Positions 28,981-49,950 of a stretch of DNA of 64,000 nucleotides are shown here, one piece after another. Position numbers and translations under genes: made by a program. Position 1 is the first letter of the stretch. Each line of letters starts with the position of its first letter. This DNA is from Lentisphaeria bacterium (GTDB taxonomy: Bacteria; Verrucomicrobiota; Lentisphaeria; Victivallales; UBA1829): assembly GCA_017455665.1 (NCBI GenBank), contig JAFSZN010000050.1:183-64182 (forward strand). The letters run 5' to 3'. The notes under the pieces were generated by a model. It worked only from the letters and a program-made list of their open reading frames with translations, was not told where the DNA came from and did not search any database.

Positions 28981-29136
28981 ATCCGGAGGCGGATCGGGGC
29001 ACAAAAAAGCACAAATGCAAACTGTTGCTTTTTTTTCTTAAAGTTTTTTGCTTTCCTGCTTGTATTTTCCTCTTCCGCGTGATATGTTGTTTGACGGAAT
29101 ACATTTCACCATGCCCCGAACGGAAAGGATTTCAAC

Positions 29137-30063
29137 ATGTTCTTCTTCGGCCCCAAAAAAGACAAATACTACGACATCGCGCAGAAACTTTTCACCTCCC
29201 TCGCCGGCGCCGCGCAGCCCGAGTGGAAAAACAGGATCCTCATCCAGCGCGACCTGATGAAACGGGCGAAACGCGCCAACGAGGACTCCGCGCTCGCGCT
29301 CTCCTTCAAGTCTCTGCCCGATGACGCACGCATCATGCCGAAGCATCCGCAAGTCCTGGAAGTCCCGTTCGCATCCGTCCGCCTGAGCAAAGACGGCAAG
29401 GAGTTTTTCGCGGACATCAGCGTCTCCCCGGACGGCGCGATCGGCTTGATCCAGTTCACGCAGCATTATTTGGCGGAAAACGGCTTCGACGTGCTCGGCG
29501 TGGACTTCTTCCCGAATCTTTTCAACGCGCCGAGTCTTGGTTTGCCGAAACAGGAAAAGCCGTTCCGCATCTCCGAAAAGCTTGTTTCGATCCTCGGCGC
29601 GGATTGGGACCGCGAGCTCCCGCCGGTGGAGATCGACGATTCGGAAGAAGATTACGGCAGGCAGACCTACGCGCCCGCCCTGCCGCCGGAGATACGGGAC
29701 GAATTCGCCCGTCTGATCCACACGAAACCCCCCGATGACTGGCAGGAATTCAGCAGGCATTTCTCCCATGCGTCCTATCACGGCGCCCTCGATGTTTACG
29801 GTTACTGCGATGAAATGCAGATCATCCCGCTGGCGCCCTGCGAAACCGCGTGGTATCTCGTGGCGCGCGTGCGGAATGAAATGTCCTCCACCTTCGAATC
29901 CTATATCCTGGCGTCCTCCGATCCGGCGATGCAGGACTCGCTGTATTTCCTGACGGAACACGACGGCGGAGAATCCGATCTGATCCCGATCGGGACCGAT
30001 CTCTTCGGATTCCTGCGCAAGGCGGATGACGAGGATTTCCTGGACTCGCTGAAGAAAAAGTAA
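29137..30063 (+). CDS. Hypothetical protein with SMI1/KNR4 (SUKH)-like C-terminal half
   Basis: 308 aa. The C-terminal ~130 aa (LPPEIRDEFARLI...WQEF...IIPLA...YFLTEHDGGE...IGTDLFGFL) resembles the SUKH immunity-protein pattern from memory; not verified. Confidence 0.55.
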   Translation: MFFFGPKKDKYYDIAQKLFTSLAGAAQPEWKNRILIQRDLMKRAKRANEDSALALSFKSLPDDARIMPKHPQVLEVPFASVRLSKDGKEFFADISVSPDGAIGLIQFTQHYLAENGFDVLGVDFFPNLFNAPSLGLPKQEKPFRISEKLVSILGADWDRELPPVEIDDSEEDYGRQTYAPALPPEIRDEFARLIHTKPPDDWQEFSRHFSHASYHGALDVYGYCDEMQIIPLAPCETAWYLVARVRNEMSSTFESYILASSDPAMQDSLYFLTEHDGGESDLIPIGTDLFGFLRKADDEDFLDSLKKK

Positions 30064-30070
30064 TTCTTCT

Positions 30071-30973
30071 GTGAATAAGAAATCCAAAATCTCCCGGACA
30101 CGATTCGAACAGGACGAAGAGCGTCTGTTCGATGATTTCTGTTCCTACGAATCGTTTGACAGGGCGAAACTGGAGGAAGAGATCGCCGCTTTTTCTGAGA
30201 TCGCCGAATCCTATCGAAACTACCTGGAGCAGCCTCGCAGGAACAAATCTCTTGCGGAGGATGTCCGGTATCGGCTCCGGGACAGTTACAGACTGCTCCG
30301 GCGTCTGTACGATGCGGCCGGAGAACCGGACAAGGCGTTTCAGGCTGCGGCGACCGCGTATCAGTTATTGCAGCAGCATGAAGAAACAAATCCTGATGAC
30401 ATGCCGCATTTTGACGAACGGGAAGAATACATTGATTATCTCCTCCGGCGGAAACGTTTTGAGCTCGTCCCCGATGTGCTCCGCACCATCACGCCGAGCG
30501 TGTTTATCTTTGAGGGATATGAGCGCGCGGAACAGTTTTACAACGACCTGATTGCCGTTGAGGAACTGATCCGGTCAGTGCCGGATAAACTTCAGGAATT
30601 CCGGTTCCTGCTCGGGAAGACCGTGCCGGACGAACTGTCGCAGGCGGAATACATGCTGTATCTGATGAGAAACGGCCTGTTTCAGTTCTTCCATGACGTC
30701 TTCGAATCCATGACGGATGAGGCGCTTGATGCGCTGCCGAAAAGCGGCGCGGCGTCCCTGCCTGAGATCGTGCGCGAATACGACCGCCGATACAGCGACC
30801 CGAACGATCCGGACGACGATTCTCCGTTTTATGCCCGGACGGACAAGATTCTGTCGGGATCATGCCCGGTCGCGGAGCTGGAGGAATGCCGCGCGGTCTG
30901 TGTGGCGCGGGACCTGAAATGGCGCATTCGCGATTTCGACAGGATGATAAAATCGAGGCAAAACCGCCACTGA
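30071..30973 (+). CDS. Hypothetical protein, DUF4375/DMP19-like motif
   Basis: GTG start; 300 aa. MRNGLFQFFHDVFESMTDEALDAL resembles the NGGFxQFF core of DUF4375. Weak call. Confidence 0.5.
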   Translation: MNKKSKISRTRFEQDEERLFDDFCSYESFDRAKLEEEIAAFSEIAESYRNYLEQPRRNKSLAEDVRYRLRDSYRLLRRLYDAAGEPDKAFQAAATAYQLLQQHEETNPDDMPHFDEREEYIDYLLRRKRFELVPDVLRTITPSVFIFEGYERAEQFYNDLIAVEELIRSVPDKLQEFRFLLGKTVPDELSQAEYMLYLMRNGLFQFFHDVFESMTDEALDALPKSGAASLPEIVREYDRRYSDPNDPDDDSPFYARTDKILSGSCPVAELEECRAVCVARDLKWRIRDFDRMIKSRQNRH

Positions 30974-30985
30974 AGATGCCGCCCC

Positions 30986-32032
30986 TCAGCGTTTGACGTA
31001 GGCGGTTTGTTTTCCGCGTCCGACCTTTTCGATCATGCCTTCCGTCAGAAGCTTTTTGAGAGTCTGTTCGATCATGGAAATACTGATGTCCGGGCATTCC
31101 AGCGCAATATCCGCCTTCGATATTTTCCCCAGCCGCCTGTCGAAAACCGTTCGGATCCTATCCTCTTTCGTTTGTTTCCCGTTGACGAGGTGCGCCACAC
31201 GCTCTTCGAACTCCCTGTAGGCTTTGATAACGGTGCCGAGCATGTAGCGCAGGAACGGGATGTAGTTGTTCCGGCAAGTGTTCCAGCCGTCGGAACTCTC
31301 CCGGAGGACTTCGTAATAGGTCAGTTTGGAATTTTCGATCAGCCTTTCCAAACTGATGTATTTCCCGACACTGTATCCATGCCGGTACAGCAGAAGCAGT
31401 GTCAGGAGTCTGCTCATGCGGCCGTTGCCGTCGTTGAACGGATGGATGCAAAGGAAATCGAAGACAAACAGCACGGAAAGCAGGAGCGGATCGTAGACTT
31501 CCTGCCGGACAGCCTCATTGTATGCTTTGCAAAGGCGTTCCACCGCTTCGGGCGTTTCGAATGCCGAGACCGGAGTGAAACGAACGCGCTTTTTGCCCGA
31601 CCGGTCGGTTTCCGCGATCACATTGTTGCTGTTTTTCCAGTGCCCGCCAGCCCCGGATGCCTGAAAGGAATAGAGATCCCGATGGAGCTGCAGGATCGTA
31701 TTCGGGGTAACGGGGATGTATTCATAGTTTTCGTGGATCGTGGCAAGGACGTCACGGTACCCTGCGATCTCTTTTTCATTGCGCGTGGCGGGTTCCGCTT
31801 TTTGAACGACAAGTTCCTTCAACCGTTTATCCGAGGTGAAGATGCCCTCAATGCGGTTGGATGCGTCCGTGCTTTGGATCACGGCGAGTTCCAGCAGCGA
31901 CTTCAGGATGTCTTTTTTTGCGCTTGAAAACTGAGCCTGCTTTCCACGGTATTCGTGAATCGCAGCGATCAGATTGCATAGTTCCGATGTCAGCAGGGTT
32001 TCAGGTAAAGCGGAATAATCGAACTGTCTCAC
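30986..32032 (-). CDS. Fic-family protein (class II, N-terminal inhibitory helix) with C-terminal wHTH
   Basis: Fic motif HPFNDGNGRMSR. Inhibitory motif S-N-R-I-E-G, i.e. (S/T)xxxE(G/N), upstream. C-terminal DNA-binding-like region ...LLTEGMIEKVGRGKQTAYVK. Confidence 0.9.
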   Translation of the reverse strand: MRQFDYSALPETLLTSELCNLIAAIHEYRGKQAQFSSAKKDILKSLLELAVIQSTDASNRIEGIFTSDKRLKELVVQKAEPATRNEKEIAGYRDVLATIHENYEYIPVTPNTILQLHRDLYSFQASGAGGHWKNSNNVIAETDRSGKKRVRFTPVSAFETPEAVERLCKAYNEAVRQEVYDPLLLSVLFVFDFLCIHPFNDGNGRMSRLLTLLLLYRHGYSVGKYISLERLIENSKLTYYEVLRESSDGWNTCRNNYIPFLRYMLGTVIKAYREFEERVAHLVNGKQTKEDRIRTVFDRRLGKISKADIALECPDISISMIEQTLKKLLTEGMIEKVGRGKQTAYVKR

Positions 32033-32497
32033 TGGCTTGCCTCCAAAAGATATATCGTTCTGCCTATACTATAATCCGGTTCTGCACAATTTTCAAGTCA
32101 GATTGTGCAGAAAGAGAAAAAAGATTGTGGGAATCCGCCGAGCAGAAACTGACCGAAGTACAACCCGGTTTCCAGGTGCGGACGCCGCGTCAGAAGAGCG
32201 TACGAACGTTCGCGTTCCGGCGTGTCGAAGTATTTGCTCAGGTCGATGTCCATTTTGAACTCAATGCGGCTGTTGTTATGTTTTCGGAAGATAAGTATAC
32301 CACATCTTTTACGAAAAGACAAGGGCAAATCCGCCCGAATCCGGAAAATAGTCCGAAAAAGGGCAGGGGGCAGAAAAACAAAACAGACTTACATAAAAAA
32401 ACAGCAATATCTCCTCGACAAAAAACTTGACATCCGCCCGAAATCTGCTATAGTAACTGTAAACGATCGATCCGCAACCGACACGGAGAAACATGCC

Positions 32498-34042
32498 ATG
32501 GACACGTCAGCATCGAGCCATAGCGGGAAATCCCCTGATTGGGGGGAGCTGCTGCATTGGTATCTGCTTGTTGTCCTTCTGCTGTTTTCACAACTGGTGA
32601 TCCTCACTCTTTTTGCGCTCTTCTGTATCCGGGCGACTGCAGGTCTATTCACCAAGTTTATCGAATTTGCATACGTGCGCCCCGTTGTGTGGCTCGTCCC
32701 GGTCTTATTTGGAGATGAGAATCATCTGGGGAACGTCCCGCTCGGCTTGGGAATGCTTCTCCTGGTCGTCATAATCTACGCCTTCCTCGGCGGCACGGTC
32801 GTCTATCTGATTCACAGACTTTCCCATGGAAAACGGATGCTGTCCTTTTTCTGTTGCGCGCTCGGTCTGCTCCTGTTCGCCGCCTGCGGCAAAAGCGAAC
32901 CCGAAGCGCCGGAATCTTCCGAAGGGAAAGCCGATTCCGTCGTTTTCACGCTGAAAGACGGCGTCGTGCTCGAAATGATCCGGGTTGAGCCCGGCACGTA
33001 CACGGTCGGACTGCCCCGGGCGGACCATCTGTGGCGGCCGGACATCGACCGGCGCGAGGTGACCGTGCCCGCGCCGTACTGGCTGGGCAAGTACGAGGTC
33101 ACGCAGGAACAATGGGAGGCCGTCATGAGCGGGGAGAAACGCCCCGAGGGGTTCGACCTGAGCAATCCGTCCTTGTACAAAGGGGAAAAGCGTCCTGTCG
33201 ACGCCGTGAACCGGAACGATGTGAACAGGTTCATCGAAAAACTGAACGCGCTCTGCGCTGACAAGCTCCCGGATGGATACCGGTTCGACCTGCCGGATCC
33301 GCTCCGGTGGGAGATCGCATGCCGCGCCGGGACGACCACGCGGATGCCGTGGGGCGACGATTCCAAACCGGAAGCTGCGAATCTGATCGCCATGGGGGAA
33401 TTGGAGAATAGCATCGACGACCTGAGTGAGGATGTTACATTCACGAATGCCGCGAAAACCCTCTTTTCCGCCGTAAAGGTGGGAATCGGTTCCAGAAACC
33501 GCCATGCATTCCGCAAGACGAGCGAAATCGGACAATACCCGCCGAACGCCTGGGGTTTCTGCGATATGATCGGGAATGTCGCGGAACTCTGCCGGGAGCG
33601 GCACACATATTCCGGCGGATACGGCGGACCGATGCAGAATGCGGCCGAAGTCACAGGCGAACTGCCGCCGGGAAATGATTATTACGAGCGGAAAACGGAC
33701 GAAACAGTCACGCATGGCGGCTCATGGTGGGATCCCGACTCGGTCATCAGCCCGGCAAACAGCTGCTGGCATCCGTATTACAACCACGCGCACCCGGAAC
33801 CTGTCTATGACAAAGTCACCGGGCATCATGTCGTGGGCTGGAAAGAATCCTGCATCGGGTTCCGTCTGGCGCTGGTGCCGGCCGGAACGACTGAAGTGGA
33901 AACGGTTAAAGGTGGAATGCCTGTTCATGCGGCAGGGCAGAGGACCAGAGAAAAGACGTTGGAACAGAACGCTGGATCGGGCGGCCGTGAGGTCTTTGGA
34001 TATCCTGTGAACGAAACGTCGCAAAACGGAGGTCAACAGTGA
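32498..34042 (+). CDS. FGE/SUMF1-domain (formylglycine-generating-enzyme fold) lipoprotein, in frame with an upstream 3-TM module
   Basis: Track ORF starts at 32222; a plausible ATG at 32498 has GGAG ~10 nt upstream. An internal ATG at 32837 gives the lipoprotein signal MLSFFCCALGLLLFAAC. FGE blocks YWLGKYEVTQEQWEAVM, NAWGFCDMIGNVAELC and HGGSWWD. Confidence 0.7.
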   Translation: MDTSASSHSGKSPDWGELLHWYLLVVLLLFSQLVILTLFALFCIRATAGLFTKFIEFAYVRPVVWLVPVLFGDENHLGNVPLGLGMLLLVVIIYAFLGGTVVYLIHRLSHGKRMLSFFCCALGLLLFAACGKSEPEAPESSEGKADSVVFTLKDGVVLEMIRVEPGTYTVGLPRADHLWRPDIDRREVTVPAPYWLGKYEVTQEQWEAVMSGEKRPEGFDLSNPSLYKGEKRPVDAVNRNDVNRFIEKLNALCADKLPDGYRFDLPDPLRWEIACRAGTTTRMPWGDDSKPEAANLIAMGELENSIDDLSEDVTFTNAAKTLFSAVKVGIGSRNRHAFRKTSEIGQYPPNAWGFCDMIGNVAELCRERHTYSGGYGGPMQNAAEVTGELPPGNDYYERKTDETVTHGGSWWDPDSVISPANSCWHPYYNHAHPEPVYDKVTGHHVVGWKESCIGFRLALVPAGTTEVETVKGGMPVHAAGQRTREKTLEQNAGSGGREVFGYPVNETSQNGGQQ

Positions 34043-34365
34043 ACGTGAATCCATCGAAAACGAACGGCAGAATCTTCCGGGAACTGTCGCGGTGGTGGTT
34101 CTGCTTCAGGTTCGTTCTGACGGTGCAGATCCTGTTCGTTTTCTGGCTGTTTTTTCTCGGCAATTTTATCAATCTGAACCGTATCGGTCAATTCCTGTAC
34201 GCAGGGGCGATTTCATGGCTCGGGAATCTGCTTTTCGATGACCCGTTCTGTGGCGATAACGTACTCGGTTTATTGATGTTTCTCCTGACGGTTATCCTCT
34301 ATTCCGTGATCGCCGGAACAGGATTATATCTGTTCCGCAGATACGTTTCACACGAAACGGAATGA
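34039..34365 (+). CDS. Small 3-TM membrane protein, paralogue of residues ~15-113 of the preceding ORF
   Basis: GTG start overlapping the upstream stop (GTGA), with GGAGG 6 nt upstream. LFDDPFCGDNVLGLLMFLLTVILYSVIAGTGLYLFRRYVSHE aligns with LFGDENHLGNVPLGLGMLLLVVIIYAFLGGTVVYLIHRLSHGK. Confidence 0.6.
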   Translation: MNVNPSKTNGRIFRELSRWWFCFRFVLTVQILFVFWLFFLGNFINLNRIGQFLYAGAISWLGNLLFDDPFCGDNVLGLLMFLLTVILYSVIAGTGLYLFRRYVSHETE

Positions 34366-34435
34366 CTGTGCCGCGCCGCATCATGTCATTCATCCGCAAA
34401 ACAGGGCAGGGGGAAACACATCCGGATGGAATATA

Positions 34436-35434
34436 TTACGGAAAGAATCCGCGCCATTCGCGCCATTTCGTTTCATTCATTTCCCATTCGCAGTACACCG
34501 CGATGCCGCGGATGTCCTCCCCCGGAGCCGCTGCCGAAATTCCCCTCAATGCCGAAATAATGTTTTCCACGCGCGGATGATGATACCCCACGCCGGCGTC
34601 CTCGTAGGCGGGGATCCCCAGCAGCAGATCGCATCCGGTCGAACGCAGGGACTCCGTCAGCTGAACCGTCCAGCGGGTCATCAGGCCGATGTAGCATTTT
34701 TCCAGCGGGATGGCGGTATCGTACATCATCACGGCCACCTGGTCGCAGCGGGCGGCGACGCTGCGCAGATACCCGGGACTCCAGTGAACATCCGGGAACC
34801 GATGCCATGCCGTCGGAGGCGGATACGCCGCCACGCTCAGTGTTTTGCGGGGGATCGCCGCGCGCAATTCATCCAGCAGCGTCAGAAAGTCCGTGTTCCC
34901 GTCCGGCATCGGCTCGATATTGACCTGAACGCCTGCGAGCCGGGGATGCGCGTTCAGAAGTTCCGATATGGAATCGACAAAACGCTTGCGCCACTCCCCG
35001 TCGGCAGGGCAGGCGGATTCGCCGAAGACGCCGCCCACCCACGGGATGACACGGATGCCGGACTGCCCGGCAAGATCGAGAAACCGTTCGGTCTGTTCAT
35101 GGTCGCAGCGCGCGATCGATCCGTCGGGCCGCGCCGGACACAGGTGCGGATAGACGATCGAAATCTTGTTGTCGGCAAGCCGACGGAAAAGCGCCGCGAT
35201 CTTCGATTCGCTGCGGAAGTCCGCACGATCAGCCTGTTTGCGCTCGAACCAGGCGTCGTCGCCGAGCCATCCGTGCCCGATCCAGATCGCGTTGTCGGAG
35301 TAATCGGGCAGGGGGGTGTCGCAGCCCGGATCCCAGAGCAGATAGCAGAGCGCCGCTCCGCCGAGGATCACGGTCAGGAGAAAGACGATCCGCAGCAGAC
35401 TTTTCCCGAACTTTTGGAACAGAACGTGTTTCAT
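34436..35434 (-). CDS. Membrane-anchored hypothetical protein, TIM-barrel glycosyl-hydrolase-like
   Basis: Track ORF is extended to 35533. The ATG at 35434 gives MKHVLFQKFGKSLLRIVFLLTVILGGAALCYLLW (anchor). The alternating beta/alpha pattern (IVYPHL, VIPWVGG, VQVNIEP, VAAYPP, VMMYDT) suggests a (beta/alpha)8 fold. Family not identified. Confidence 0.55.
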   Translation of the reverse strand: MKHVLFQKFGKSLLRIVFLLTVILGGAALCYLLWDPGCDTPLPDYSDNAIWIGHGWLGDDAWFERKQADRADFRSESKIAALFRRLADNKISIVYPHLCPARPDGSIARCDHEQTERFLDLAGQSGIRVIPWVGGVFGESACPADGEWRKRFVDSISELLNAHPRLAGVQVNIEPMPDGNTDFLTLLDELRAAIPRKTLSVAAYPPPTAWHRFPDVHWSPGYLRSVAARCDQVAVMMYDTAIPLEKCYIGLMTRWTVQLTESLRSTGCDLLLGIPAYEDAGVGYHHPRVENIISALRGISAAAPGEDIRGIAVYCEWEMNETKWREWRGFFP

Positions 35435-35756
35435 CGTTTGCTTGATTGTTTGCTTGACGGCATGATTTGCGAGGGAAACGGATGCTTCCTTGTGCTCGAA
35501 CAACTTGATGCGGCGGCAGATTGTCGAGCGCAACGAGTATTCCGAATTTTGAATACTATATCACGCTTTCTGCCGTTGTCAAGCCGGATTCAAGCCGGAT
35601 TCCGGAAAACAACATCTTGTCCTTTTGTCTCATTATGGACATATATATGTGTGTATCACCAATCAGGGCAGGGGGACACACACATGTATTATAAATCAGG
35701 ACAGGGGGCAAGTATAAAATAGTACGACAAATGATAATATACTCTTCGCCCCAATC

Positions 35757-35857
35757 TTTTGAAATGCGCGCCTCGCGGTAACGAAAAGAATAGACGCGTG
35801 CATCAGGCACGCTTACCTAGGCTTGCAAACAGCAAGCCCCCGGACGCAAAAGAATCC
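35757..35857 (+). repeat. DFR unit L1 (type A)
   Basis: GCGCGCCTCGCGGT box, hp1 GCGTGC-ATCAG-GCACGC and hp2 GGCTTGC-AAACA-GCAAGCC. hp3 is degraded (GGACGCAAAAGAATCC). A T-run and then GGGTAGGG at 35876 follow. Confidence 0.85.
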
Positions 35858-35931
35858 TTTCATTTTTTTTCTTTAGGGTAGGGGGCAAATACAGATTCGC
35901 CATCCTACTGTCAACCAATTATTTATAAATC

Positions 35932-36025
35932 TTTGCCGTTCGCGTCTCGCGGTCAAATAAAACTTATCAAGCTCAAGCGAGTATTCCGAGGCGAGCGGAT
36001 GCGAGCCCCCGGACGCATCGCGTCC
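35932..36025 (+). repeat. DFR unit L2 (type B)
   Basis: TTGCCGTTCGCGTCTCGCGGT box, a CAAGCGAGTATTCC segment, a degenerate hp2 and hp3 GGACGC-ATC-GCGTCC followed by TTATTCTTTTT. Confidence 0.85.
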
Positions 36026-36102
36026 TTATTCTTTTTGGATCAGGGCCGGGAGTAAAGTTTTATTTATCTGTTTCATTGATTCTTGTTCACATTCCCATTC
36101 CC

Positions 36103-36199
36103 TTGTTGTTCGCGTCTCGCGGTATCGTGAAAAAACATATCGAGCGCAGAGAATTTTCCGAGGCTTGCGAACAGCAAGCCCCCGGACGCGAACGCGTCC
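36103..36199 (+). repeat. DFR unit L3 (type B)
   Basis: TTGTTGTTCGCGTCTCGCGGT box, a TCGAGCGCAGAGAATTTTCC segment, hp2 GGCTTGC-GAACA-GCAAGCC and hp3 GGACGC-GAAC-GCGTCC. Confidence 0.85.
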
Positions 36200-36339
36200 A
36201 AAAAAGTCGAGCGTAGCGAGCATTCCGAGGCTCGCGAAAGCAAGCCCCTCGAACGCATCGCATCAAAACAAATAAAATCAGGGCAGGGGGGCAAGTATAA
36301 AATAGTACGACAAATGATAATATACTCTTCGCCCCAATC

Positions 36340-36440
36340 TTTTGAAATGCGCGCCTCGCGGTAACGAAAAGAATAGATGCGTGCATCAGGCACGCTTACC
36401 GAGGCTTGCGAACAACAAGCCCCCGGACGCGAACGCGTCC
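36340..36440 (+). repeat. DFR unit L4 (type A)
   Basis: Near-identical to L1 but with all three hairpins intact. Part of the 157-nt duplication 35692-35848 / 36274-36430. Confidence 0.9.
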
Positions 36441-36570
36441 AAATACATTTTTTCTTTCGGGCAGGGGTCAGATATGCTTTCCCATCTTCCTCCTCCTATA
36501 TTTGCCGTCGCGTCTCGCGGAAAATATATCGAAGGGCAGAGGAGAAATAATAATCTATTTTCCAGAATAT

Positions 36571-36666
36571 TTGAAATGCGCGCCTCGCGGTCAAATAAGA
36601 CATGTGTCGAGCACAGTGAGTATTCCTAGGCTTGCGAACAGCAAGCCCCCCGGACGCATCGCGTCC
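36571..36666 (+). repeat. DFR unit L6 (type B)
   Basis: GCGCGCCTCGCGGT box, a TCGAGCACAGTGAGTATTCC segment, hp2 GGCTTGC-GAACA-GCAAGCC and hp3 GGACGC-ATC-GCGTCC. Confidence 0.85.
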
Positions 36667-36917
36667 AAATCTATCATAACGTCAGCCACACAAAAAAACT
36701 CAATCTTTCTTCATTTCATCTTTTTGTTTGTGGCATGAAAAAACAACGGCTTCATATCCATAGAGCAGGGCGATGTTACGCTTTTTCCGTCACATGGACG
36801 CACTCAGAAAATCTCCTCTTCTTCCCAGGCGATTTAAGCGCATGATAACGACCGATACAGCTCTTCATCCGTCTCTGATTTATCCCCGTGTTAAATGGGC
36901 TTTGCGGCCCATTTATA

Positions 36918-36945
36918 ACGTCGCATAATATATATTATGTTAAAT
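36918..36945 (+). other. dif-like XerC/XerD chromosome-dimer resolution site
   Basis: ACGTCGCATAA-TATATA-TTATGTTAAAT versus E. coli dif GGTGCGCATAA-TGTATA-TTATGTTAAAT. The XerD arm matches 11/11, the inner 7 nt of the XerC arm are identical, and the spacer matches 5/6. Lies in an AT-rich ORF-poor gap. A 9-bp-stem hairpin (36892-36915, TAAATGGGC/GCCCATTTA) abuts it. Confidence 0.75.
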
Positions 36946-37665
36946 CGAGTACGCTCAAAAGGGCGAACCAAGACATTTATATTGTCCTATAGACAAATGG
37001 ATTGCGGCGTGTGTACAATCCGATTGTCAACAACTTTTTAACAACTTTTGACAATTGACATCATTTTGGACCACAGCCCTGGAAAAACGGTCATCGGTTC
37101 CAAAGCAGTTTCGAGACAACAAAAAATATTTCGTTAATGGGTCGAAGGAACTTGATAGATTTGTTTTCATCATCGTGATTCGGACCGCCCATGTGTTGCC
37201 GAACGGGAAAGAACTTTTTTCGTCGAACATTCTGAATTTGGTCCATTTTTCACGGGCAGGGCATGGCAAAAGCCGTTTTTACCCCCTCGCCTGAGGTCAT
37301 TTTTTTTAGAAGGTGAGAACGATGAAAATTTTTGGGGTCTTTGGGGAGGTTGTCACGAGTTCGGTCTTGTTCGATTTTTTGATGTTTTGGATATAATATT
37401 CTCTGAAAACATGCCAATCTTTTCAAAACATCTTGTGTGTCCAAATGGGGGGGCGTTTACTTTCGGAATAGGGGCTGAGGAGAATTTGCGTCTGATGTTT
37501 TGAGCTCACTTTACTCCCCTACCCTATTGAAAAAGAGACATGTAGATACAAAATATGCCTTTTATCTTCTGCCAGGAAGAAGGAATAAATCAATAGTTTC
37601 TTTTCTTGTGTTTCTGTTTCATAATCCAATGCAGAATGATTACTTGTATTTCGAACAATCTTTTT

Positions 37666-37765
37666 GGACGCATTTGCGTCCGGGGGGCTTGCATTCGCAA
37701 GCCTCGGTAAGCGTGCCTGATGCACGCATCTTTTTTTTATTAACGCGAGACGCGCGAATCAAAAG
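37666..37765 (-). repeat. DFR unit R1 (type A, inverted)
   Basis: Reading the + strand: GGACGC-ATTT-GCGTCC, then GGCTTGC-ATTC-GCAAGCC, then GCGTGC-CTGAT-GCACGC, then ATCTTTTTTTTATT, then AACGCGAGACGCGCG. Confidence 0.9.
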
Positions 37766-37928
37766 GGTGGAGATATTCTTAGGTCGTATACTGTTTGATG
37801 ACGTTATACTTCTTTTCTTGTTACCGCGAGACGCGCAATGCTGAGTAGCGGGAAGAAACAGTGCGTTCATACAGAGCAGACAGCGAATCCATAATCCTAT
37901 GCCCCCTGCCCTAAATTTGACCAAATCA

Positions 37929-38027
37929 GGACGCATTCGCGTCCGGGGGGCTTGCATTCGCAAGCCTCGGTAAGCGTGCCTGATGCACGCATCTTATTTT
38001 CCCATTACCGCGAGACGCGAACGGCAA
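37929..38027 (-). repeat. DFR unit R3 (type A, inverted)
   Basis: Same three hairpins, followed by TACCGCGAGACGCGAACGGCAA, the exact reverse complement of the L2 box TTGCCGTTCGCGTCTCGCGGT. Confidence 0.9.
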
Positions 38028-38532
38028 TTTAAAAGTTAAACATTTCTTCTCACAAGATACAACAATGCAATGAAGGATTACAGGTGACCGCGAGACGCGA
38101 TAAACAAAGTCCTTTTGTGAACTCCCCGGAGACGAGAAATAATAGAAAAGGTTCAGGTTACCGCGAGACGCGCAAGTCAAATTATTCTTTAAAAGTAAGA
38201 TGTGTTTTTTGACAGACCATACAACTGACTTATCCGTTTTTGTTTCGTCTTTCGCCTTCATTAATCTTCAGTACAAAATAGCCTGACAAAGAAAGATCGA
38301 ACGGGGATTCATCCTATGTCTTTCAAGACCTCTTTGAATGATTCCGTGCGAACGGGTGACGGGTCCAGTTCACGTCGTCACCGGGGCGGGGAATCGGGGC
38401 ACAATGAATATTATTATCGTTTTTTGAACTCAAAATACCCCGCCGCCCCTGTCGTATATCGGATTTTTCCGCAAAAAAACAGATCGACTCTTGTTTTTTT
38501 GATTAAGATGGGGTATAATAATTATAAATCTC

Positions 38533-39246
38533 ATGTCTTGTCGCCTCGACTGGAGGATGCCGTCCGTGTACAAAACCGTTTTTTACAATGAAGACGATAA
38601 TATCCGTCTGACCAGGTATTGGTCATCCAAAGACGGGAAACTGATCCTGGATATCCACTCCGTCGGCGCGGAAGAGTATCCCGGACCGAAAGGCAATATC
38701 CAGTTCGATGCCGGGGTATGGTTCGCATACAACGTCTTCGACCGGGACGGACGCATCAAAGTGTCCTATGAGGCGGATGAACCGGACGACCGTTATCCCG
38801 ATGCGTACTGGAGTGTCAATGTGACTTATTTTTACGGCTTTACGGACGAAACGGTCCTGAAAAGCTGTTTCCGGATCCTCATGGACCGGGATTTCCGGAT
38901 CACGAAACGGACCATGGAAGACCTCGAGCTGCGCGATCTGGACGGTCTCCATGTCTTTTACGGGAAACGCCCGAAGTTCCTGCAGCGATACCGGGACGGG
39001 AAAAAGACCGGCGCCAACAGGTATTGTGACGACAAGCGGCTGCAGCAGTTCATCGAAATCGACCATGCCGATTACGCCGGACCGATCGACGTCTCCAGCC
39101 GCGGCTGCCGCAGGATCGAATGCGACGATGCGTTCAAATCGAAGCTTCTCAAATTCGACCGGCTGGTCTTTTATATCAAAAAGGTTTTTCTTGATCCGAC
39201 CTCCAAGTATTATCAAACGCCCCCTGCCCCGGAGAACGGAAAATGA
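38533..39246 (+). CDS. Hypothetical protein, possibly YwqK/MORN-like repeats
   Basis: 237 aa; an alternative start exists at 38557. Gly/Tyr-punctuated beta-hairpin-like repeats (FYGKRPKFLQRYRDGKKTGANRYCDDKRLQQFIEI). Ends with the tail YYQTPPAPENGK shared with the two downstream paralogues. Confidence 0.5.
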   Translation: MSCRLDWRMPSVYKTVFYNEDDNIRLTRYWSSKDGKLILDIHSVGAEEYPGPKGNIQFDAGVWFAYNVFDRDGRIKVSYEADEPDDRYPDAYWSVNVTYFYGFTDETVLKSCFRILMDRDFRITKRTMEDLELRDLDGLHVFYGKRPKFLQRYRDGKKTGANRYCDDKRLQQFIEIDHADYAGPIDVSSRGCRRIECDDAFKSKLLKFDRLVFYIKKVFLDPTSKYYQTPPAPENGK

Positions 39247-39431
39247 TGTTGGGGATACAGGGCACCTCTAAAAATTGGTTTCCGACGGCTTTTCGCGTCC
39301 GGTTTGCTCCTCCCTGACCTGACCAATCAGCATCAAAAAATATGTTTTTTCGCTTGCATTCCTGGGCGAGACGGTGTATAATAAATCAATAATAAAAATC
39401 CAGTTCCGTTCAAACAAATCAGAATATTCTC

Positions 39432-40820
39432 ATGCCGGACAGTCGCACCACGCACAACATAATCTTTTCGAGCATTGGCGTCTTCCTGATCGCCGCAGTC
39501 GTTTTGATCCTGCTGGCAATCCCCCGGGACGATCTTTCACTCGGCAGGATATCGAGGCTTCCCGTGATCCGCCTCTTCATTTCTCCGAATCCCGAACGGG
39601 CCGAAAGATTGTATCTTGCAGGACTCGACCTTGTCGAATACGACAAACAACAGGCGATCGAGTACATCCGGATGGCGGCGGAACTCGGCAATGTGCCGGC
39701 TCAATCCGCGCTCGGGTCTTTCTATTTCAACGGAGACGGCGTCGAACAGGATGCCGCCGAAGCCGTGAAATGGTTCCGCAAGGCGGCGGATCAGGGATTC
39801 CCCGAGGCGCAATCCAACCTCGGAATCAGTTACATAAAAGGCAGGGGCGTCGAACAGGACACCGCCGAGGCCGTGAAATGGTTCCGCAAGGCGGCGGACC
39901 TGGGATTTTCTCCCGCGCAGAACAATCTGGGGCTGTACTGTCTTGAAAACGGCCGGGAGGCAGAGGGGGTCGAACTGTTCCGCAAGGCGGCGGAATACGG
40001 ACTTGCCTCGGCGATGCATAACCTCGCGTTTTGTTATGGCGAAGGCCGCGGCGTCGAAAAGGATCCTGCAGAGGAACGGAAATGGTACCGCAAAGCCGCG
40101 GAACAGGGATACGTCAATTCTCAGTTCAACCTTGGCACGCTCTATTATTCCGAAAAGGGTGACGAGAACCTGAAAGAAGCGGCGAAATGGTACCACATGA
40201 CGGCGGATCAGGGGCTCGCGCAAGGGGAACTCATGCTTGGAGCATTCTATCTGAACGGCATGGGCGTCGAACAGGATATGGCGGAGGCGGTCAAATGGTT
40301 CCGCCTGGCGGCGGATCAGGGTGAAGAGTATGCGGAATACTCGCTCGGCGAGTGTTACAAGAACGGTTACGGCGTCCCACAGGATATGGCGGAGGCGGCG
40401 AAATGGTACCGCTTGGCGTCGGATCAGGGGCTTTCCTACGCTCAATGCGCGCTCGCGTTCTGTTATCGGAACGGGACCGGCGTGCCGAAGGATCCCGCCG
40501 TGGCGGACAAGCTTATCAACGAAGCCATGCCGAAACTGCGCGCGGCCGCGGAACAGGGCGACGCCGAGGCGCAGATGTGGATGGGGAGATGCTACGAAGA
40601 CGGATTCGGAGCGGAAAAGGACGAGCCGAAAGCCATCGAATGGTATCGCAAAGCCGCGGAACAGGACCATGCGGATGCCCAATATTCGCTCGCGCTGATC
40701 CTCAAACGGAACGGAGACGCGGACGAAGCGGAGACGCTGCTTCGCAAGGCTGCCGAATTCGGACATCCGGAAGCGAAAAAACTCCTCGATGTACCCGGTC
40801 AAACAGACCGGAAGCCATAG
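39432..40820 (+). CDS. Membrane-anchored Sel1 (SLR/TPR-like) repeat protein
   Basis: N-terminal TM IIFSSIGVFLIAAVVLILLAI, then about ten 36-aa repeats of the form AEAVKWFRKAADQG...AQ.NLG..Y..G.GV.QD. Confidence 0.85.
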   Translation: MPDSRTTHNIIFSSIGVFLIAAVVLILLAIPRDDLSLGRISRLPVIRLFISPNPERAERLYLAGLDLVEYDKQQAIEYIRMAAELGNVPAQSALGSFYFNGDGVEQDAAEAVKWFRKAADQGFPEAQSNLGISYIKGRGVEQDTAEAVKWFRKAADLGFSPAQNNLGLYCLENGREAEGVELFRKAAEYGLASAMHNLAFCYGEGRGVEKDPAEERKWYRKAAEQGYVNSQFNLGTLYYSEKGDENLKEAAKWYHMTADQGLAQGELMLGAFYLNGMGVEQDMAEAVKWFRLAADQGEEYAEYSLGECYKNGYGVPQDMAEAAKWYRLASDQGLSYAQCALAFCYRNGTGVPKDPAVADKLINEAMPKLRAAAEQGDAEAQMWMGRCYEDGFGAEKDEPKAIEWYRKAAEQDHADAQYSLALILKRNGDADEAETLLRKAAEFGHPEAKKLLDVPGQTDRKP

Positions 40821-40831
40821 GGACAGACAAG

Positions 40832-41524
40832 ATGGAATTATCATCCGGGCGAACGAATGAGATCCTGGGGCCGTGGCGGATCGGCTGGCTGGTCCTTGCC
40901 GCCGCGCTGGCTTCGGCGTACCTGGGGCCTTCGGTCGCGCCGATCGCCGGATATGTGGATTCGTGTGTTTTGGTGCTTTTCCTGTTCTGCGGAGCGGCAT
41001 TCATCGTCCTGTCGGTCTTCACGTTTGTCTGTTACATCCTCGTCGCTCCGTTTCCGGCGTTCTTCCGCCGGGACATCATTCCGTCGTGTTTCCGCCGCAA
41101 CAAAGACGGCACGCCGAAGGTCGCCAGGACGGTTTCCGTTTCGGAGGAATGCCTTTCAAAGATGGAAGACTCTTACGGCCGCGGGGTCGCATTCGATCAG
41201 ATCGTCGTTTATCCCGTTCTGATCTTCCTGTTTGTTCATTATATCTTGACGCGCGGATATGAGGATTATATGAACTGGCGCGATCCGAACGATTACGGGT
41301 TCTACTGGTATCCGGTGTTGTTCGCCGTCCTCTCGATCCCGTGGCATCTGCTCTATGCGTGGCGGAGCGGACGGCATTGTCCGTACTGCCTGACGCCGCG
41401 CACGAAAGACAACTTCGACCTCGAGCATCACGTCTGCATGCGGTGCCATACCCACTTCGTCGCGGGAAACGAAACCGAAACACCAAACGAAACGTCCCCG
41501 GCCCCGGAGGAGAACGGGAAATGA
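40832..41524 (+). CDS. Polytopic membrane protein with C-terminal CPxC...CxxC zinc ribbon (paralogue 1)
   Basis: Track ORF 40352.. is over-extended; the ATG at 40832 gives 230 aa with about 4 TM helices. C-terminus IPWHLLYAWRSGRHCPYCLTPRTKDNFDLEHHVCMRCHTHF and tail SPAPEENGK. Confidence 0.7.
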   Translation: MELSSGRTNEILGPWRIGWLVLAAALASAYLGPSVAPIAGYVDSCVLVLFLFCGAAFIVLSVFTFVCYILVAPFPAFFRRDIIPSCFRRNKDGTPKVARTVSVSEECLSKMEDSYGRGVAFDQIVVYPVLIFLFVHYILTRGYEDYMNWRDPNDYGFYWYPVLFAVLSIPWHLLYAWRSGRHCPYCLTPRTKDNFDLEHHVCMRCHTHFVAGNETETPNETSPAPEENGK

Positions 41525-42213
41525 GAATCAAAGCCCATCATTTATCCATCCAAAGGCTCTTTTTTATCGTGGGACCGTGGCGGATCGCGTCGCTCGCGTT
41601 TGCCGCATTCGGATTTCTTTCTCCGGATGCATTTTATGGGATCGCCGTCCCTCTCGTTATTGCCGTATTCGGTTTCAGCTGCGTGATCCTGTTCGGACTG
41701 ATCATCTTCGTGCCCGCCGAACTGATCGCGGATCTGACCAACGGCAGACGGGGCAGATGTTTCCACGCGGACTTGCGCGAATTGACCGGAAAGAAGAAAC
41801 AGGACCGCCAGCCGATGATCTTCAGGACGTATCCCGTGCCGGAAAGCTGGCTGGCGAAGATGGAAAATCTTACCAGTCACTGGGAAGGATTCCTCCAGAC
41901 TTTTGTTTTCCCCGCGATGATCGTCGGGTTGATTGCGAACTGCATGCACGGCTATGACAGATGGTTCGACTTCCATTATCCGATGCTGCCCTACGGATAC
42001 TTTACCTTCGAGGCGGCGTTCATTGCACTCGGAATCCCGTGGCATCTGCTCTATGCGTGGCGGAGCGGACGGCATTGTCCGTACTGCCTGACGCCGCGCA
42101 CGATCGACAACTTCGACCTCGAGCATCACGTCTGCATGCGGTGCCATACCCGGTTCATCGCGGAAAACGAAAACAAACTTGAGCCGCCCCCTGCCCCGGC
42201 GGACAAAGCATAA
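41521..42213 (+). CDS. Polytopic membrane protein with C-terminal zinc ribbon (paralogue 2)
   Basis: ATGA overlap with paralogue 1. Also exactly 230 aa with the same C-terminal block (…PRTIDNF…CHTRF) and tail PPPAPADKA. The N-terminal two-thirds are strongly diverged. Confidence 0.7.
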   Translation: MRIKAHHLSIQRLFFIVGPWRIASLAFAAFGFLSPDAFYGIAVPLVIAVFGFSCVILFGLIIFVPAELIADLTNGRRGRCFHADLRELTGKKKQDRQPMIFRTYPVPESWLAKMENLTSHWEGFLQTFVFPAMIVGLIANCMHGYDRWFDFHYPMLPYGYFTFEAAFIALGIPWHLLYAWRSGRHCPYCLTPRTIDNFDLEHHVCMRCHTRFIAENENKLEPPPAPADKA

Positions 42214-42337
42214 GAAAAAGCGCCCTGCCCGAAGCCGCCTTCCATATTGAGGAAAACTGCTCCGGACAGGACGCCCGGTCATGGCGGGATCCCGGATCGA
42301 ACGGGACACCCGTTCCATGATCTGAGATCGAGGGGAC

Positions 42338-42724
42338 TTACAGCGTATTCAGCCCGAGGTCACCACCTCCTCTGCTCTGATGTGACAGACGGCGGAGCGC
42401 CTTCTTCGCGGTCCGTCTTCTGTGGCGGAGAGGCCTGCCGAGCCGGACGGGCAGCAGATACCGCCGCGCGGTGCGATCCGCCACGTGAAGTCTCTGCGCG
42501 ATGACGGTGGGGTTGCCCACCCTCTCGTAGTAGAACATCTTGTAGGCGGCCCAGCGTTTCGGCTCCCGGCTTGCCCAGTCCGCCAGCAGGATCATCCGCC
42601 GCAGCGTTTCGGTTCCCGGCATGTCATTCTTTTTCCACGAGGCGGTGTCGTATTCCGCCTCGCGCAGGATCTGGTCCATACCGATGCCATGATCTGAACC
42701 GATCTCTTCGTTGTATTCACTCAT
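42338..42724 (-). CDS. Small HTH protein, sigma-70 region-4-like (putative transcription regulator)
   Basis: 128 aa. YKMFYYERVGNPTVIAQRLHVADRTARRYL resembles a region-4/LuxR-type HTH, with a basic C-terminal tail. Family not identified. Confidence 0.45.
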   Translation of the reverse strand: MSEYNEEIGSDHGIGMDQILREAEYDTASWKKNDMPGTETLRRMILLADWASREPKRWAAYKMFYYERVGNPTVIAQRLHVADRTARRYLLPVRLGRPLRHRRRTAKKALRRLSHQSRGGGDLGLNTL

Positions 42725-42978
42725 GATAACGTCCGCATCTTTCTTCCGTTTACGTTTTTATGGATGGGGTACATGTTCAATAAGGTGGATGTGTCTGGGG
42801 ATTCTGTCGTACAATTGTACGACACATCGGGCGGCGAGCGGTTCATGCGCGGTCCTTTCTTTTCGAGATTTGAAGTGTATGATTCGATGCCGGATCCGGG
42901 CGCCTGAATCCGTTTGCGGAGGCATCCTCCCGAATCCGGGAAAATATAGTACGTATCCCAGCCAAAGTCAAGCTCAAA

Positions 42979-43019
42979 TTGAAACTTTTCTGAAACTTTA
43001 TTGAAACTAGTTTCAATAA
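42979..43019. promoter_or_regulatory. Phased TGAAAC hexamer array ending in a 10-bp inverted repeat
   Basis: TGAAAC at 42980, 42991 and 43002 (11-bp phasing), plus an inverted GTTTCA at 43010. TTATTGAAAC-TA-GTTTCAATAA is a perfect palindrome (42998-43019). Lies between the divergent HTH gene and yjbQ. Confidence 0.4.
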
Positions 43020-43180
43020 AACATCTCACAAATCTGATCGTCAAAAAGAAAGAATCAAGGATCAGCCCTGCCCTGTCCGGCACAAAAACCGCTTCACGCG
43101 CTTGCAAACAGGGATCGCGCGCAGTATATTATTTGTCGGAAACGAATCAAACAAGCATCCATCGAAAGGAACCATCCATC

Positions 43181-43582
43181 ATGGCAGAATTCTTCGTCAA
43201 GACCAGCCGTCACTGCGAGATCATCGACATCACCGAGGACGTCAACCGCGTGCTGCCGCAGTCCATGGCGTGCGGCATGTGCCACATCTACTGCCCCCAC
43301 ACGACCGCCGGGATCACGATCAACGAGAACGCCGACCCGGACGTGAAGCACGACGTGCTGCAGAAACTCTCCTCGCTCATCCCGCACGACGAGGCGTATT
43401 ACCAGCACTGCGAGGGCAACAGCGACGCGCATCTGAAGGCGATCCTGACCGGATTCTGCCAGACCGTGCCGTTCCGCAACGGACGTCTTGAGCTCGGCAC
43501 CTGGCAGGGCATCTATTTCTGCGAGTACGACGGACCGCGTACGCGCCGTGTGAAAGTCTACTTCGAACCTGCACAGGATTGA
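43181..43582 (+). CDS. yjbQ: YjbQ/UPF0047-family protein (secondary thiamine-phosphate synthase-like)
   Basis: Track ORF is over-extended; the ATG at 43181 gives 133 aa. HTTAGITINENADPDV and EGNSDAHLKA are typical of the family. Confidence 0.85.
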   Translation: MAEFFVKTSRHCEIIDITEDVNRVLPQSMACGMCHIYCPHTTAGITINENADPDVKHDVLQKLSSLIPHDEAYYQHCEGNSDAHLKAILTGFCQTVPFRNGRLELGTWQGIYFCEYDGPRTRRVKVYFEPAQD

Positions 43583-43619
43583 CCCCTCCCCTGCCCTGCT
43601 TCTTCCTCAAAAAGAATCT

Positions 43620-43662
43620 CCCCTGCCCCGGAATCATATTCGAGGCAGGGGTTCGTTTTTTT
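43620..43662 (+). terminator. Rho-independent terminator
   Basis: CCCCTGCC/GGCAGGGG stem with a 16-nt loop, followed by TTCGTTTTTTT. Confidence 0.6.
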
Positions 43663-43782
43663 AGCCTGTATACATAAAAAGCCCGTAGAAAGCATTTACG
43701 GCTTTCCACGGACTGTTGTGGCAACCTGATTCCTTGTGCCCGAGCGAAGCCGGGCACTGCCGCAGTGGAGGCGTTCGCCTCC

Positions 43783-46086: not shown

Positions 46087-46599
46087 GTCTTGCGATCCTT
46101 GTGTTGGTTTGTATTAGGATTGCTCAGGAAAAATCAGGCATCCGGATACGGGTGGAAACACGTCCGGACCACCCGTATCTTCCCTGTGCAAAGGGTTTCA
46201 ACGGGCGGCCTTCGTAATAATGATGTCGATAATGGCATCGGACGCGGTACGGATCATGGCAATGCGGACAGACGCGAACGCCGCGGCGGAGAATTCCCCG
46301 TCGCGCTGTTCAAAACCGGCTGTCGTGCGGAACATCATTTGCGATTGCCTCGATCCGTTCGTAAGAAAAAAGAATAGATACAAATATACCCTCACTTTGT
46401 TTTTTTTTCAAGCGAATCGTGAAATTATCCTCAAAAAAAGACTTCACAGACACGGAAATCAGGCTGATCCTCTATTGGCAAGTCCCGAATCGTTTTTTCA
46501 GTCGGGATCCGAATCTTTTTTTTGGCGTTCGCCGGCTTGATATTTCCTGATGCGGTGTTATATTAAACTGAATAAAAACGACTAGCTGAAAGAGATTCG

Positions 46600-47802: not shown

Positions 47803-47872
47803 TCGCGCATCCTTTTTCACCAGACTTTATCCGAAACGGGTTCCATTCCACAAACGTTCAGAAAGACCCCCT

Positions 47873-49228: not shown

Positions 49229-49488
49229 TGCCGGATCCCGGTCCGCCGCTTTTTTCGGAGGAGGGGCCTTCGGGCGCGGCTTGATCCCGTTTCGGGAAAA
49301 GGCATATTGAACACACAGCAAATCCCGAATAAAAAAGATACCCTTTAGGGTATACGGTTTCCCCGTGCCCGGTTTTTGAAAAAAAATGGATGCCCGGCAC
49401 AATATCCCGCGCCTTGGGAGCGTTAATTGACCAGAAGCGCGCAACGGAACAAACAAAAACACAACCAACACACAATCAGGTGACTGCA

Positions 49489-49950
49489 ATGAAATCCATC
49501 TCCAATCTTTTTGTCAATAAGCTCTCCGCTCTTTTCCTCATCGCCGCGATCGCCGGCATGGTCTCGGTCAACGCCTATGCTCACACCGATGACTACATGG
49601 GATTCGGCGGATTCCATCACTTCAACGGATTCGGATACGGGTTCGGCGGATTCCATCACTTCAACGGATTCGGATACGGGTTCGGCGGATTCGGCGGATT
49701 CGGCGGATTCGCTCCCGGCATGGAGTTCGGATACGGATTCGGCGGACATCATTTCGACGCTTATTCCGCGGTCGATTTCAACGGATTCGGATATGGCTTC
49801 ACGGCTCAGAACCCTGTTCACGCCTCGAACCGCAAGATCGTCCCTCTGCCGCCCACCGCTTCCACGGTCAACACCTCCATCACTTACGATGAATCCGGCG
49901 AACTCCACGTTCGCCCGTTCGACGACGAAGACCTCTTCGTGGAGGATTGA
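49489..49950 (+). CDS. Secreted Gly/Phe/His/Tyr-rich repeat protein (hypothetical)
   Basis: Track ORF is over-extended; the ATG at 49489 lies 6 nt after AGGTGA. Signal peptide MKSISNLFVNKLSALFLIAAIAGMVSVNAYA. Then MGFGGFHHFNGFGYGFGGFHHFNGFGYGFGGFGGFGGF..., a perfect 39-nt tandem duplication from ~49603, and an acidic C-terminus. Confidence 0.7.
   Translation: MKSISNLFVNKLSALFLIAAIAGMVSVNAYAHTDDYMGFGGFHHFNGFGYGFGGFHHFNGFGYGFGGFGGFGGFAPGMEFGYGFGGHHFDAYSAVDFNGFGYGFTAQNPVHASNRKIVPLPPTASTVNTSITYDESGELHVRPFDDEDLFVED

Follow-up and report, generated by a model that had tools for sequence, protein, structure and literature searches.

The 64-kb stretch of DNA analysed here (hereafter the window) comes from a Lentisphaeria bacterium of the gut or rumen that is uncultured and known from metagenomes only, and it raises the question of whether an AT-rich, apparently empty stretch near its middle carries the site at which chromosome dimers are resolved and, with it, the boundary between the two replichores. 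Lentisphaeria are part of the PVC group. Genes in the window were 85–89% identical to those of a sheep-rumen Lentisphaeria MAG (L056) and the rumen MAG RUG10770 (L060), a comparison drawn from the genomes that were retrieved by the dif core described below, and the exact AccA protein was found in metagenome contigs only. We conclude that positions 36918–36945 are very probably a functional chromosomal dif, placed where the replichores of this bacterium meet, because the site is present in a single copy per contig, because the polarity of the FtsK-orienting octamers switches beside it, and because rearrangements among relatives are mirror-symmetric about it. The core of the finding is a textbook element; its surroundings, described below, include conserved non-coding blocks and mirrored repeat arrays.

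A dif site of the E. coli type

The dif architecture of two 11-bp arms around a 6-bp central region (PMC5357621) was found in full, with partial dyad symmetry between the arms, and the parts of the site are as follows.

36918–36945, + strand: dif, the 28-bp XerCD recombination site, ACGTCGCATAATATATATTATGTTAAAT, which reads as ACGTCGCATAA-TATATA-TTATGTTAAAT
36918–36928, + strand: left arm, ACGTCGCATAA, the XerC-binding side by analogy with E. coli
36929–36934, + strand: central region TATATA, 6 bp and palindromic, the E. coli counterpart of which is TGTATA
36935–36945, + strand: right arm, TTATGTTAAAT, the XerD-binding side by analogy with E. coli

We compared this sequence with the experimentally defined dif of E. 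coli MG1655, GGTGCGCATAATGTATATTATGTTAAAT, which was checked directly in the reference at position 1,590,750. The two sites are identical at 23 of 28 positions, and the preliminary description, which had proposed a 28-bp dif at this place with all 11 XerD-arm positions, the inner 7 XerC-arm positions and 5 of the 6 spacer positions shared with E. coli, was borne out position by position (XerD arm 11/11, XerC arm 7/11, spacer 5/6). Allowing up to three mismatches, we found no further match to the 28-mer in the 64-kb window and none in 100 shuffles, while the pattern GCATAA-N6-TTATG, with at most one mismatch, occurred once in the window, at dif itself. No other 11-mer in the window resembled the XerD arm with fewer than two mismatches, and a search for a second dif-like site, such as would flank an XerCD-integrating mobile element (IMEX), came back empty across the 64 kb, relaxed stringency included. 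Thus, there is one dif copy in 64 kb, and the same count of one per contig held in about 180 contigs. A small ORF that begins at an ATG within dif (MRRYKW...) was rejected as a gene, its stop not being kept in L056.

At least 120 species-representative genomes were found to contain the inner 24-mer, with its TATATA spacer, as a single copy per stretch, and most of the matches listed belong to Gammaproteobacteria; a TATATA spacer is common in that class and in others. The 24-mer lies at 51% of record length in one complete genome (NZ_CP180555) and at 49% in another (NZ_CP085265), a terminus-like position on the assumption that such records start near oriC. The outer bases of the left arm are far more restricted: ACGT accompanies the same core at 5 of the 120 listed loci, and four of those five are Lentisphaeria, Victivallales and Verrucomicrobia relatives (L056, L060, L074 and L118), which have AACGT plus the core in common, while another Lentisphaeria locus (L027) reads AGCGT. 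The identical 28-mer was also found in 56 metagenome contigs, one copy each, and together with the genome-collection contigs L056, L060, L074 (a Verrucomicrobia MAG locus) and L118 this makes 60 related contigs in all. Viral contigs contained no copy of the 28-mer, and a plasmid megablast with the 30–45 kb part of the window returned no similar plasmid.

FtsK-orienting motifs converge on dif

As FtsK-orienting polar sequences (KOPS) we scored the E. coli octamer family GGGNAGGG, on the assumption that the host has an FtsK that reads it. The motif lay exclusively on the + strand from 14434 to 37254 (11 motifs) and exclusively on the - strand from 37517 to 54685 (11 motifs), so that over this span the octamers converge on dif with a single exception close to the site.

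14434–36466, + strand: ten GGGNAGGG motifs left of dif, all on the + strand and pointing towards it, starting at 14434, 21506, 23763, 32361, 34404, 35306, 35666, 35876, 36281 and 36459
37254–37261, + strand: a lone motif on the XerD side that points away from dif and sets the polarity switch at 37254–37517
37517–54692, - strand: eleven GGGNAGGG motifs right of dif, all on the - strand and pointing towards it, starting at 37517, 37904, 39222, 42189, 42223, 43066, 43584, 43589, 43621, 47389 and 54685

Counted over the whole window and split at dif, the motifs were 10+/0- on the left and 4+/13- on the right (Fisher p=1.5e-4), and the difference held with the repeat zone excluded (6+/0- vs 3+/11-, p=0.002). 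A blind search for k-mers that flip strand returned GGGCAGGG as the top 8-mer and GGGCAGG as the top 7-mer. Beyond 60.7 kb there are five motifs of mixed orientation, four of which are the GGGGAGGG variant. The left motifs at 23763 and 35306 are antisense to their - strand genes, and most right motifs are antisense to + strand genes; the orientation of the motif is thus independent of gene strand, and the polarity is not a coding-strand effect. As a positive control, 50 kb around E. coli dif gave six motifs on the + strand to the left and three on the - strand to the right, reproducing the known flip.

The same convergence was seen in other genomes: the 60 related contigs that carry the identical 28-mer had 296 motifs directed at dif and 30 directed away from it, and the listed genomes with the 24-mer (at least 120) had 185 and 27. 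In the window the polarity switch is offset from dif by 0.3–0.6 kb towards the XerD side. At least 15 related loci have an equivalent motif directed away from dif, between +340 and +790 and often as one half of a palindromic convergent pair, so the polarity junction lies consistently 0.3–0.8 kb to the XerD side of dif. KOPS were also unusually dense next to the site: of the 27 in the 64-kb window, eight fall within 35300–38000, a 2.7-kb stretch where 0.15 would be expected, an enrichment of about 50-fold. The genome-wide density in E. coli is 1 per 12.6 kb (PMC3384302).

The probable replichore junction in relatives and in base composition

To compare gene order we oriented each locus by its own dif and considered HSPs of at least 300 bp outside the dif zone. 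Eighteen HSPs joined segments on the same side in the same orientation and 12 joined segments on opposite sides in inverted orientation, while not one was inverted on the same side or in the same orientation on the other side; L178, L141, L129 and L179 are among the loci that show both occurring classes at once. Such a pattern is the signature of inversions symmetric about the replichore junction. Together with the KOPS flip and the 296 to 30 ratio in relatives, it upholds the earlier proposal that the window spans the terminus.

Two other signals that had been expected at dif, an extremum of cumulative GC skew and a switch in gene-strand bias, say little at the scale of the window. Raw cumulative skew peaks near 52–53 kb and has no extremum at dif; the coding strand being rich in C, it tracks gene orientation and is uninformative. 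Once corrected for gene orientation, the + strand showed a G excess of +0.036 to the left of dif and -0.008 to its right (permutation p about 0.05), and GC3 skew was +0.055 and -0.008 (permutation p about 0.09), so the corrected sign change runs in the expected direction and brackets dif. Left of dif the genes were 22+/6- and right of it 12+/8-, a difference that is not significant (p=0.21).

Gene content around dif

Housekeeping genes were detected on both sides of dif, including those for HflX, a MiaB-type radical-SAM enzyme, AccA, RecR, NrdD (anaerobic ribonucleotide reductase), Thi4, ThiE and a thioredoxin-reductase-like pyridine-nucleotide oxidoreductase. Around dif there are also accessory genes and a zone with no called gene.

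30986–32032, - strand: Fic protein, confirmed
35534–38532: AT-rich zone (about 45% GC) with no called gene, surrounding dif
39432–40820, + strand: Sel1-repeat protein, confirmed
about 40.8–42.2 kb: one tandem paralogue pair

The accessory genes that the preliminary description had seen flanking dif were recovered in part: Fic, Sel1 and one paralogue pair stood, whereas the 'SUKH-like' protein had no Pfam match. Its statement that dif sits in the most AT-rich, gene-free part of the window agrees with our results, as dif lies at the GC minimum (0.45 against about 0.60 elsewhere), no ORF in the 3 kb of 35534–38532 has coding-type codon-position GC, and a Pfam scan of all small ORFs in the zone gave no match. 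An Rfam scan of 34–40 kb was likewise without a match, and in a 99.8%-identical contig from another sample, the genes of which were called independently, the same stretch is also empty. The 'gene-free' zone is made up of mirrored modular repeats.

The first protein to the right of the zone, at 38533–39246, has 237 aa here and 245 aa in the gene call on the 99.8%-identical contig, probably through an earlier start. It was considered as a candidate terminus protein and set aside, since it adjoins dif in only some relatives. A tblastn search of the window and the related loci with E. coli XerD returned no Xer-type recombinase, and neither ftsK nor xerC nor xerD lies within the 64-kb window. The lack of a recombinase gene beside dif is in keeping with the XerCD type and not with the XerS or XerH modules, and a single-recombinase dif module was rejected here, no tyrosine-recombinase match being found in the window.

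The hairpin and the conserved non-coding blocks

Directly beside dif lie a hairpin and two blocks of conserved non-coding sequence.

36808–36917, + strand: XerC-side conserved non-coding block, about 110 nt
36892–36915, + strand: perfect hairpin with a 9-bp stem and a 6-nt loop, TAAATGGGC-tttgcg-GCCCATTTA, 2 nt upstream of dif
36946–37090, + strand: XerD-side conserved non-coding block, about 145 nt, defined in an alignment of 24 relatives

The XerC-side block is 73–85% identical to its counterparts in L126, L179, L129, L132, L060, L173 and others. Within the XerD-side block, ATTGTCAAYAACTTTTCAAYAAC (37023–37047) and GGGCACAGACC..AAAA (37068–37086) are near-invariant. Both blocks, about 250 bp together, stay with dif in some 25 relatives despite rearranged outer flanks. 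RNAalifold found no consensus RNA structure on either strand of these flanks and Rfam gave no match, and a structured RNA was rejected on the RNAalifold result.

The 9-bp-stem hairpin that had been noted immediately before dif is present at 36892–36915 and folds stably as single-stranded DNA (-10.1 kcal/mol, z = -4.2), but the implied link with dif fared less well, as its conservation in relatives is weak. It is one of just four perfect hairpins with a stem of at least 9 bp in the window, it falls within the block that is conserved with dif, and L056 and L060 have a hairpin in the corresponding position whose stem bases differ. Covariation reached 0.195 against 0.143 in shuffles, with 1 of 500 shuffles attaining that value. 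Such observations would suit a functional partner of dif, for instance one that insulates or terminates transcription, or an accessory element beside the XerC arm. Yet among 28 aligned relatives 57% of cells pair, compared with 53% in shuffles; covariation stays nearly unchanged, at 0.185, when the partner is shifted by +1; RNAalifold on the aligned relatives did not call the hairpin; neither strand has a T-run after the stem; and the more distant Victivallales and Verrucomicrobia sites are without it. We regard a functional partnership as unlikely and count the hairpin simply among the conserved sequence beside dif, not among demonstrated structures.

Mirrored repeat arrays

On either side of these blocks, the AT-rich zone contains modular repeats that face dif.

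35522–36669, + strand: left modular repeat array, the fullest units of which hold a 12-mer, three hairpins, a linker and a KOPS
35768, 35942, 36112, 36351, 36510 and 36580, + strand: six 12-mer copies on the left
37661–38193, - strand: right array, the same modules in mirror orientation
37742, 37823, 38007, 38087 and 38160, - strand: five 12-mer copies on the right

Read towards dif, the fullest unit consists of the near-invariant 12-mer GCGYCTCGCGGT, three hairpins (stems GCGTGC/GCACGC, GGCTTGC/GCAAGCC and GGACGC/GCGTCC; fold z = -4.6 to -5.8), a T-rich linker and a KOPS (AGGGCAGGGGGCA). Incomplete units also occur, in which some 12-mers are without hairpins, and an intact KOPS ends only some units. 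The 12-mer counts include one copy with a single mismatch on each side; no copy is more than 1.3 kb from dif, and no exact 12-mer was found elsewhere in the window. The 12-mer has the same polarity in nine related loci, other relatives have no repeats, and copy number varies, with five perfect 60-nt tandem copies in L147 and about 100 extra nt in the right array of the 99.8%-identical strain. A CRISPR reading of the 60-nt copies was rejected, as the 'spacers' are identical and the spacing in the window is irregular. When viral contigs were scanned, a 22-mer from hairpin D gave no match and a 15-mer around the 12-mer gave 37, of which 36 were single and none formed arrays like those at dif; we judged these matches to be no evidence of a phage-borne source.

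Several repeat units carry a KOPS, and these supply dense, correctly oriented candidate loading sites for FtsK beside dif. The mirror polarity is most economically explained by local duplication combined with dif-centred inversions and selection against misoriented KOPS. Alternatively, hairpin elements may have integrated at stalled forks, into the template of the lagging strand (compare IS608; PMC5027513). A third option is a fork trap, in which the 12-mers would bind a protein in a polar manner; the geometry fits, as the 12-mers form opposed groups on the two sides of dif (6+ left, 5- right). No sequence like the Ter core GTTGTAACTA was found in the search, and no member of the Tus or RTP families was matched by Pfam among the roughly 50 window ORFs scanned. 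That the arrays as a whole are a dedicated Lentisphaeria terminus device, either an ultra-dense FtsK-loading platform shaped by selection or a set of polar fork-trap sites, with the flanks of about 250 bp acting as accessory sequence for Xer, seems improbable to us.

Alternative explanations for the site

A dif-like sequence can also mark the junction (attL or attR) of an IMEX, or belong to a plasmid or chromid as a cer- or psi-like site, and the low-GC, gene-poor neighbourhood with its accessory Fic and Sel1 genes, as well as the variable gene content around dif among close relatives, would be in keeping with such an origin. We nevertheless consider it very improbable, because even relaxed searches found no second dif-like site in the 64 kb, the spacer is 6 bp long with both arms canonical, KOPS converge on the site, and housekeeping genes lie on both sides. 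The identical 28-mer is moreover fixed in 60 relatives while its flanks change, it occurs on no viral contig, and no plasmid resembled the 30–45 kb part of the window; with one site only and a 6-bp spacer, we did not assign it to the IMEX junctions or to the cer/psi type. Chance would be a still poorer account: the surroundings of dif are the AT-richest of the window, and a palindrome of this kind could arise there, but the absence of matches in shuffles and the exact recurrence of the sequence in about 60 independent contigs, at the point of KOPS convergence, leave a coincidental match with a negligible probability.

The site could also be a genuine dif while the forks meet tens of kb or more away, in which case the window would hold the KOPS junction only. 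The raw skew peak near 52–53 kb and the mixed motif polarity past 60.7 kb both lean that way, but raw skew follows gene orientation, the corrected sign change brackets dif, and the rearrangements of relatives are symmetric about dif, as expected of a replichore boundary. We therefore hold a distant meeting point to be improbable and retain a chromosomal dif at the replichore junction as the reading of this locus.

Proposed mechanism and comparison with known systems

By analogy with E. coli, we infer that this genome encodes XerC, XerD and a gamma-domain FtsK, and that the three proteins work as they do there. XerC would bind the left arm (36918–36928) and XerD the right arm (36935–36945), while the septal DNA translocase FtsK would load on the GGGNAGGG motifs that point at dif from both sides. 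FtsK would then pump DNA up to the XerCD-dif complex and activate XerD for a first strand exchange in the central TATATA, after which XerC would resolve the Holliday junction, converting the chromosome dimer to monomers at division. This is the classical XerCD/dif/FtsK pathway (PMC5357621, PMC2800217, PMC3130261).

The E. coli dif/XerC-XerD/FtsK-KOPS system is alike in its 11-6-11 layout, in the identity of the XerD arm and the inner XerC arm, in the convergence of the GGGNAGGG family on dif, and in a gene-poor zone of accessory genes with no recombinase genes beside the site. It differs in that the outer XerC-arm bases are GGTG in E. coli and ACGT here, the central region here is the palindrome TATATA, and the host belongs to the PVC group; KOPS number 27 per 64 kb and 8 per 2.7 kb here, compared with 9 per 50 kb around E. 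coli dif, and one conserved motif on the XerD side points away. Proteobacterial profiles have previously predicted dif in 16 phyla, including three Verrucomicrobia (PMC3025954). The sites in Akkermansia and Opitutus from that survey (Kono et al. 2011, PMC3025954) are likewise proteobacterial-profile dif sites on PVC chromosomes, though the survey was without Lentisphaeria, KOPS polarity, flanking blocks and repeats.

Other Xer sites share fewer features with this one. IMEX sites (CTXphi, VGJphi, TLCphi, the gonococcal genetic island) and cer/psi sites also have XerC and XerD arms around a short centre, but theirs are paired around an element or have a divergent XerD arm, and in plasmid cer the spacer is 8 bp long and accompanied by about 180 bp of accessory sequence; the dif described here shows none of these features. 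XerS/difSL and XerH/difH place a recombinase gene beside an atypical site, whereas the window has no such gene and a classical site. The 12-mers resemble Tus-Ter of E. coli and RTP-Ter of B. subtilis in being short polar sites in two opposed groups, but they have no Ter-core similarity, lie at most 1.3 kb from dif, and occur as repeats of variable copy number in a narrow group of relatives. Large mirror-image terminus duplications also consist of mirrored DNA centred on the dif region, yet they span 38–76 kb and duplicate dif, while the units here are about 0.1–0.2 kb around a single dif.

Significance

If the arrays were a dedicated device, they would be neither neutral nor selfish repeats. 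The dense repeat-borne KOPS and the conserved blocks offer a natural case for studying how FtsK loading near dif is arranged; together with the occurrence of an E. coli-type KOPS in a PVC bacterium, we present them as leads, not findings. For a lineage known from metagenomes only, dif marks the replichore boundary and thereby gives a reference point for contig ordering, for peak-to-trough growth estimates and for the reading of rearrangements. The locus extends the reach of the motif GGGNAGGG to a PVC bacterium, and it suggests that an E. coli-type dif core and this octamer family function, or are at any rate retained, in the PVC group.

Conserved sequences and repeat arrays at dif

The 28-bp XerCD recombination site, dif, lies between two conserved non-coding blocks, and beyond these are two modular repeat arrays that are mirror partners of one another.

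35522-36669, + strand: modular repeat array, left of dif
36808-36917: conserved non-coding block, XerC side
36946-37090: conserved non-coding block, XerD side (notable segments 37023-37047 and 37068-37086)
37254-37261: single KOPS (FtsK-orienting octamer) directed away from dif, XerD side
37661-38193, - strand: modular repeat array, right of dif

In about 25 relatives, both non-coding blocks have been conserved alongside dif although the outer flanks are rearranged. They contain two copies of TCAANNNNTT at 11-nt spacing as well as GGGCACAGACC; searches in them for RNA structure, Rfam families, and coding periodicity were negative. The fullest units of the arrays combine a near-invariant 12-mer, GCGYCTCGCGGT, with three hairpins, followed by a T-rich linker and then a KOPS; no exact copy of the 12-mer was found outside the dif-flanking arrays in the 64 kb window. 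Array polarity was identical in nine related loci, and copy number differed from strain to strain.

The away-directed KOPS recurs at +340 to +790 from dif in the related loci L056, L060, L132, L138, L140, L141, L147, L164, L179, and others, so that the KOPS polarity switch is consistently offset from dif, by 0.3-0.8 kb toward the XerD side; this KOPS frequently forms a palindrome with a facing KOPS.

Base composition and gene content around dif

With a GC3 skew of about -0.1 to -0.4, coding strands were C-rich throughout the window; local GC skew consequently tracks gene orientation and hides the replication signal at window scale. The extreme AT skew at 9563-13204 (up to 0.44) is caused by a single gene, whose product carries about six copies of a repeat of about 30 aa (DAKALADANAKVKTL.DENAKLKADLDAAKK). 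Within a MiaB-type radical-SAM gene (6169-7572), ARAGORN called an antisense tRNA that is probably a false positive.

6814-6896, - strand: tRNA-Pro(CGG) call
9563-13204, + strand: 1213-aa secreted Ala/Lys/Asp-rich coiled-coil protein
about 40.8-41.5 kb and 41.5-42.2 kb: tandem paralogous gene pair, immediately right of a Sel1-repeat gene

A zone of about 14 kb enclosing dif (29000-43000) has a GC content of 0.50-0.57 versus 0.60-0.65, and encodes Fic, FGE-sulfatase-domain, GH18/TIM-barrel, and Sel1-repeat proteins along with orphan genes, with gene content and order varying among relatives. The tandem paralogues share 39.5% identity and are 230 aa each as called on contig L221; the single copy scanned (41341-42213) had no Pfam match.

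Inversions across dif

Comparison with close relatives revealed gene blocks that had moved to the opposite side of dif and been inverted.

26-30 kb: crossed blocks, compared with L056, L138, L147, and L143
42-48 kb: crossed blocks, compared with L178, L164, L141, and L128

The Thi4/ThiE block lies toward the XerD arm in L056, a sheep-rumen Lentisphaeria genome, and toward the XerC arm in the window; the orientation of dif relative to a given flank is therefore variable.
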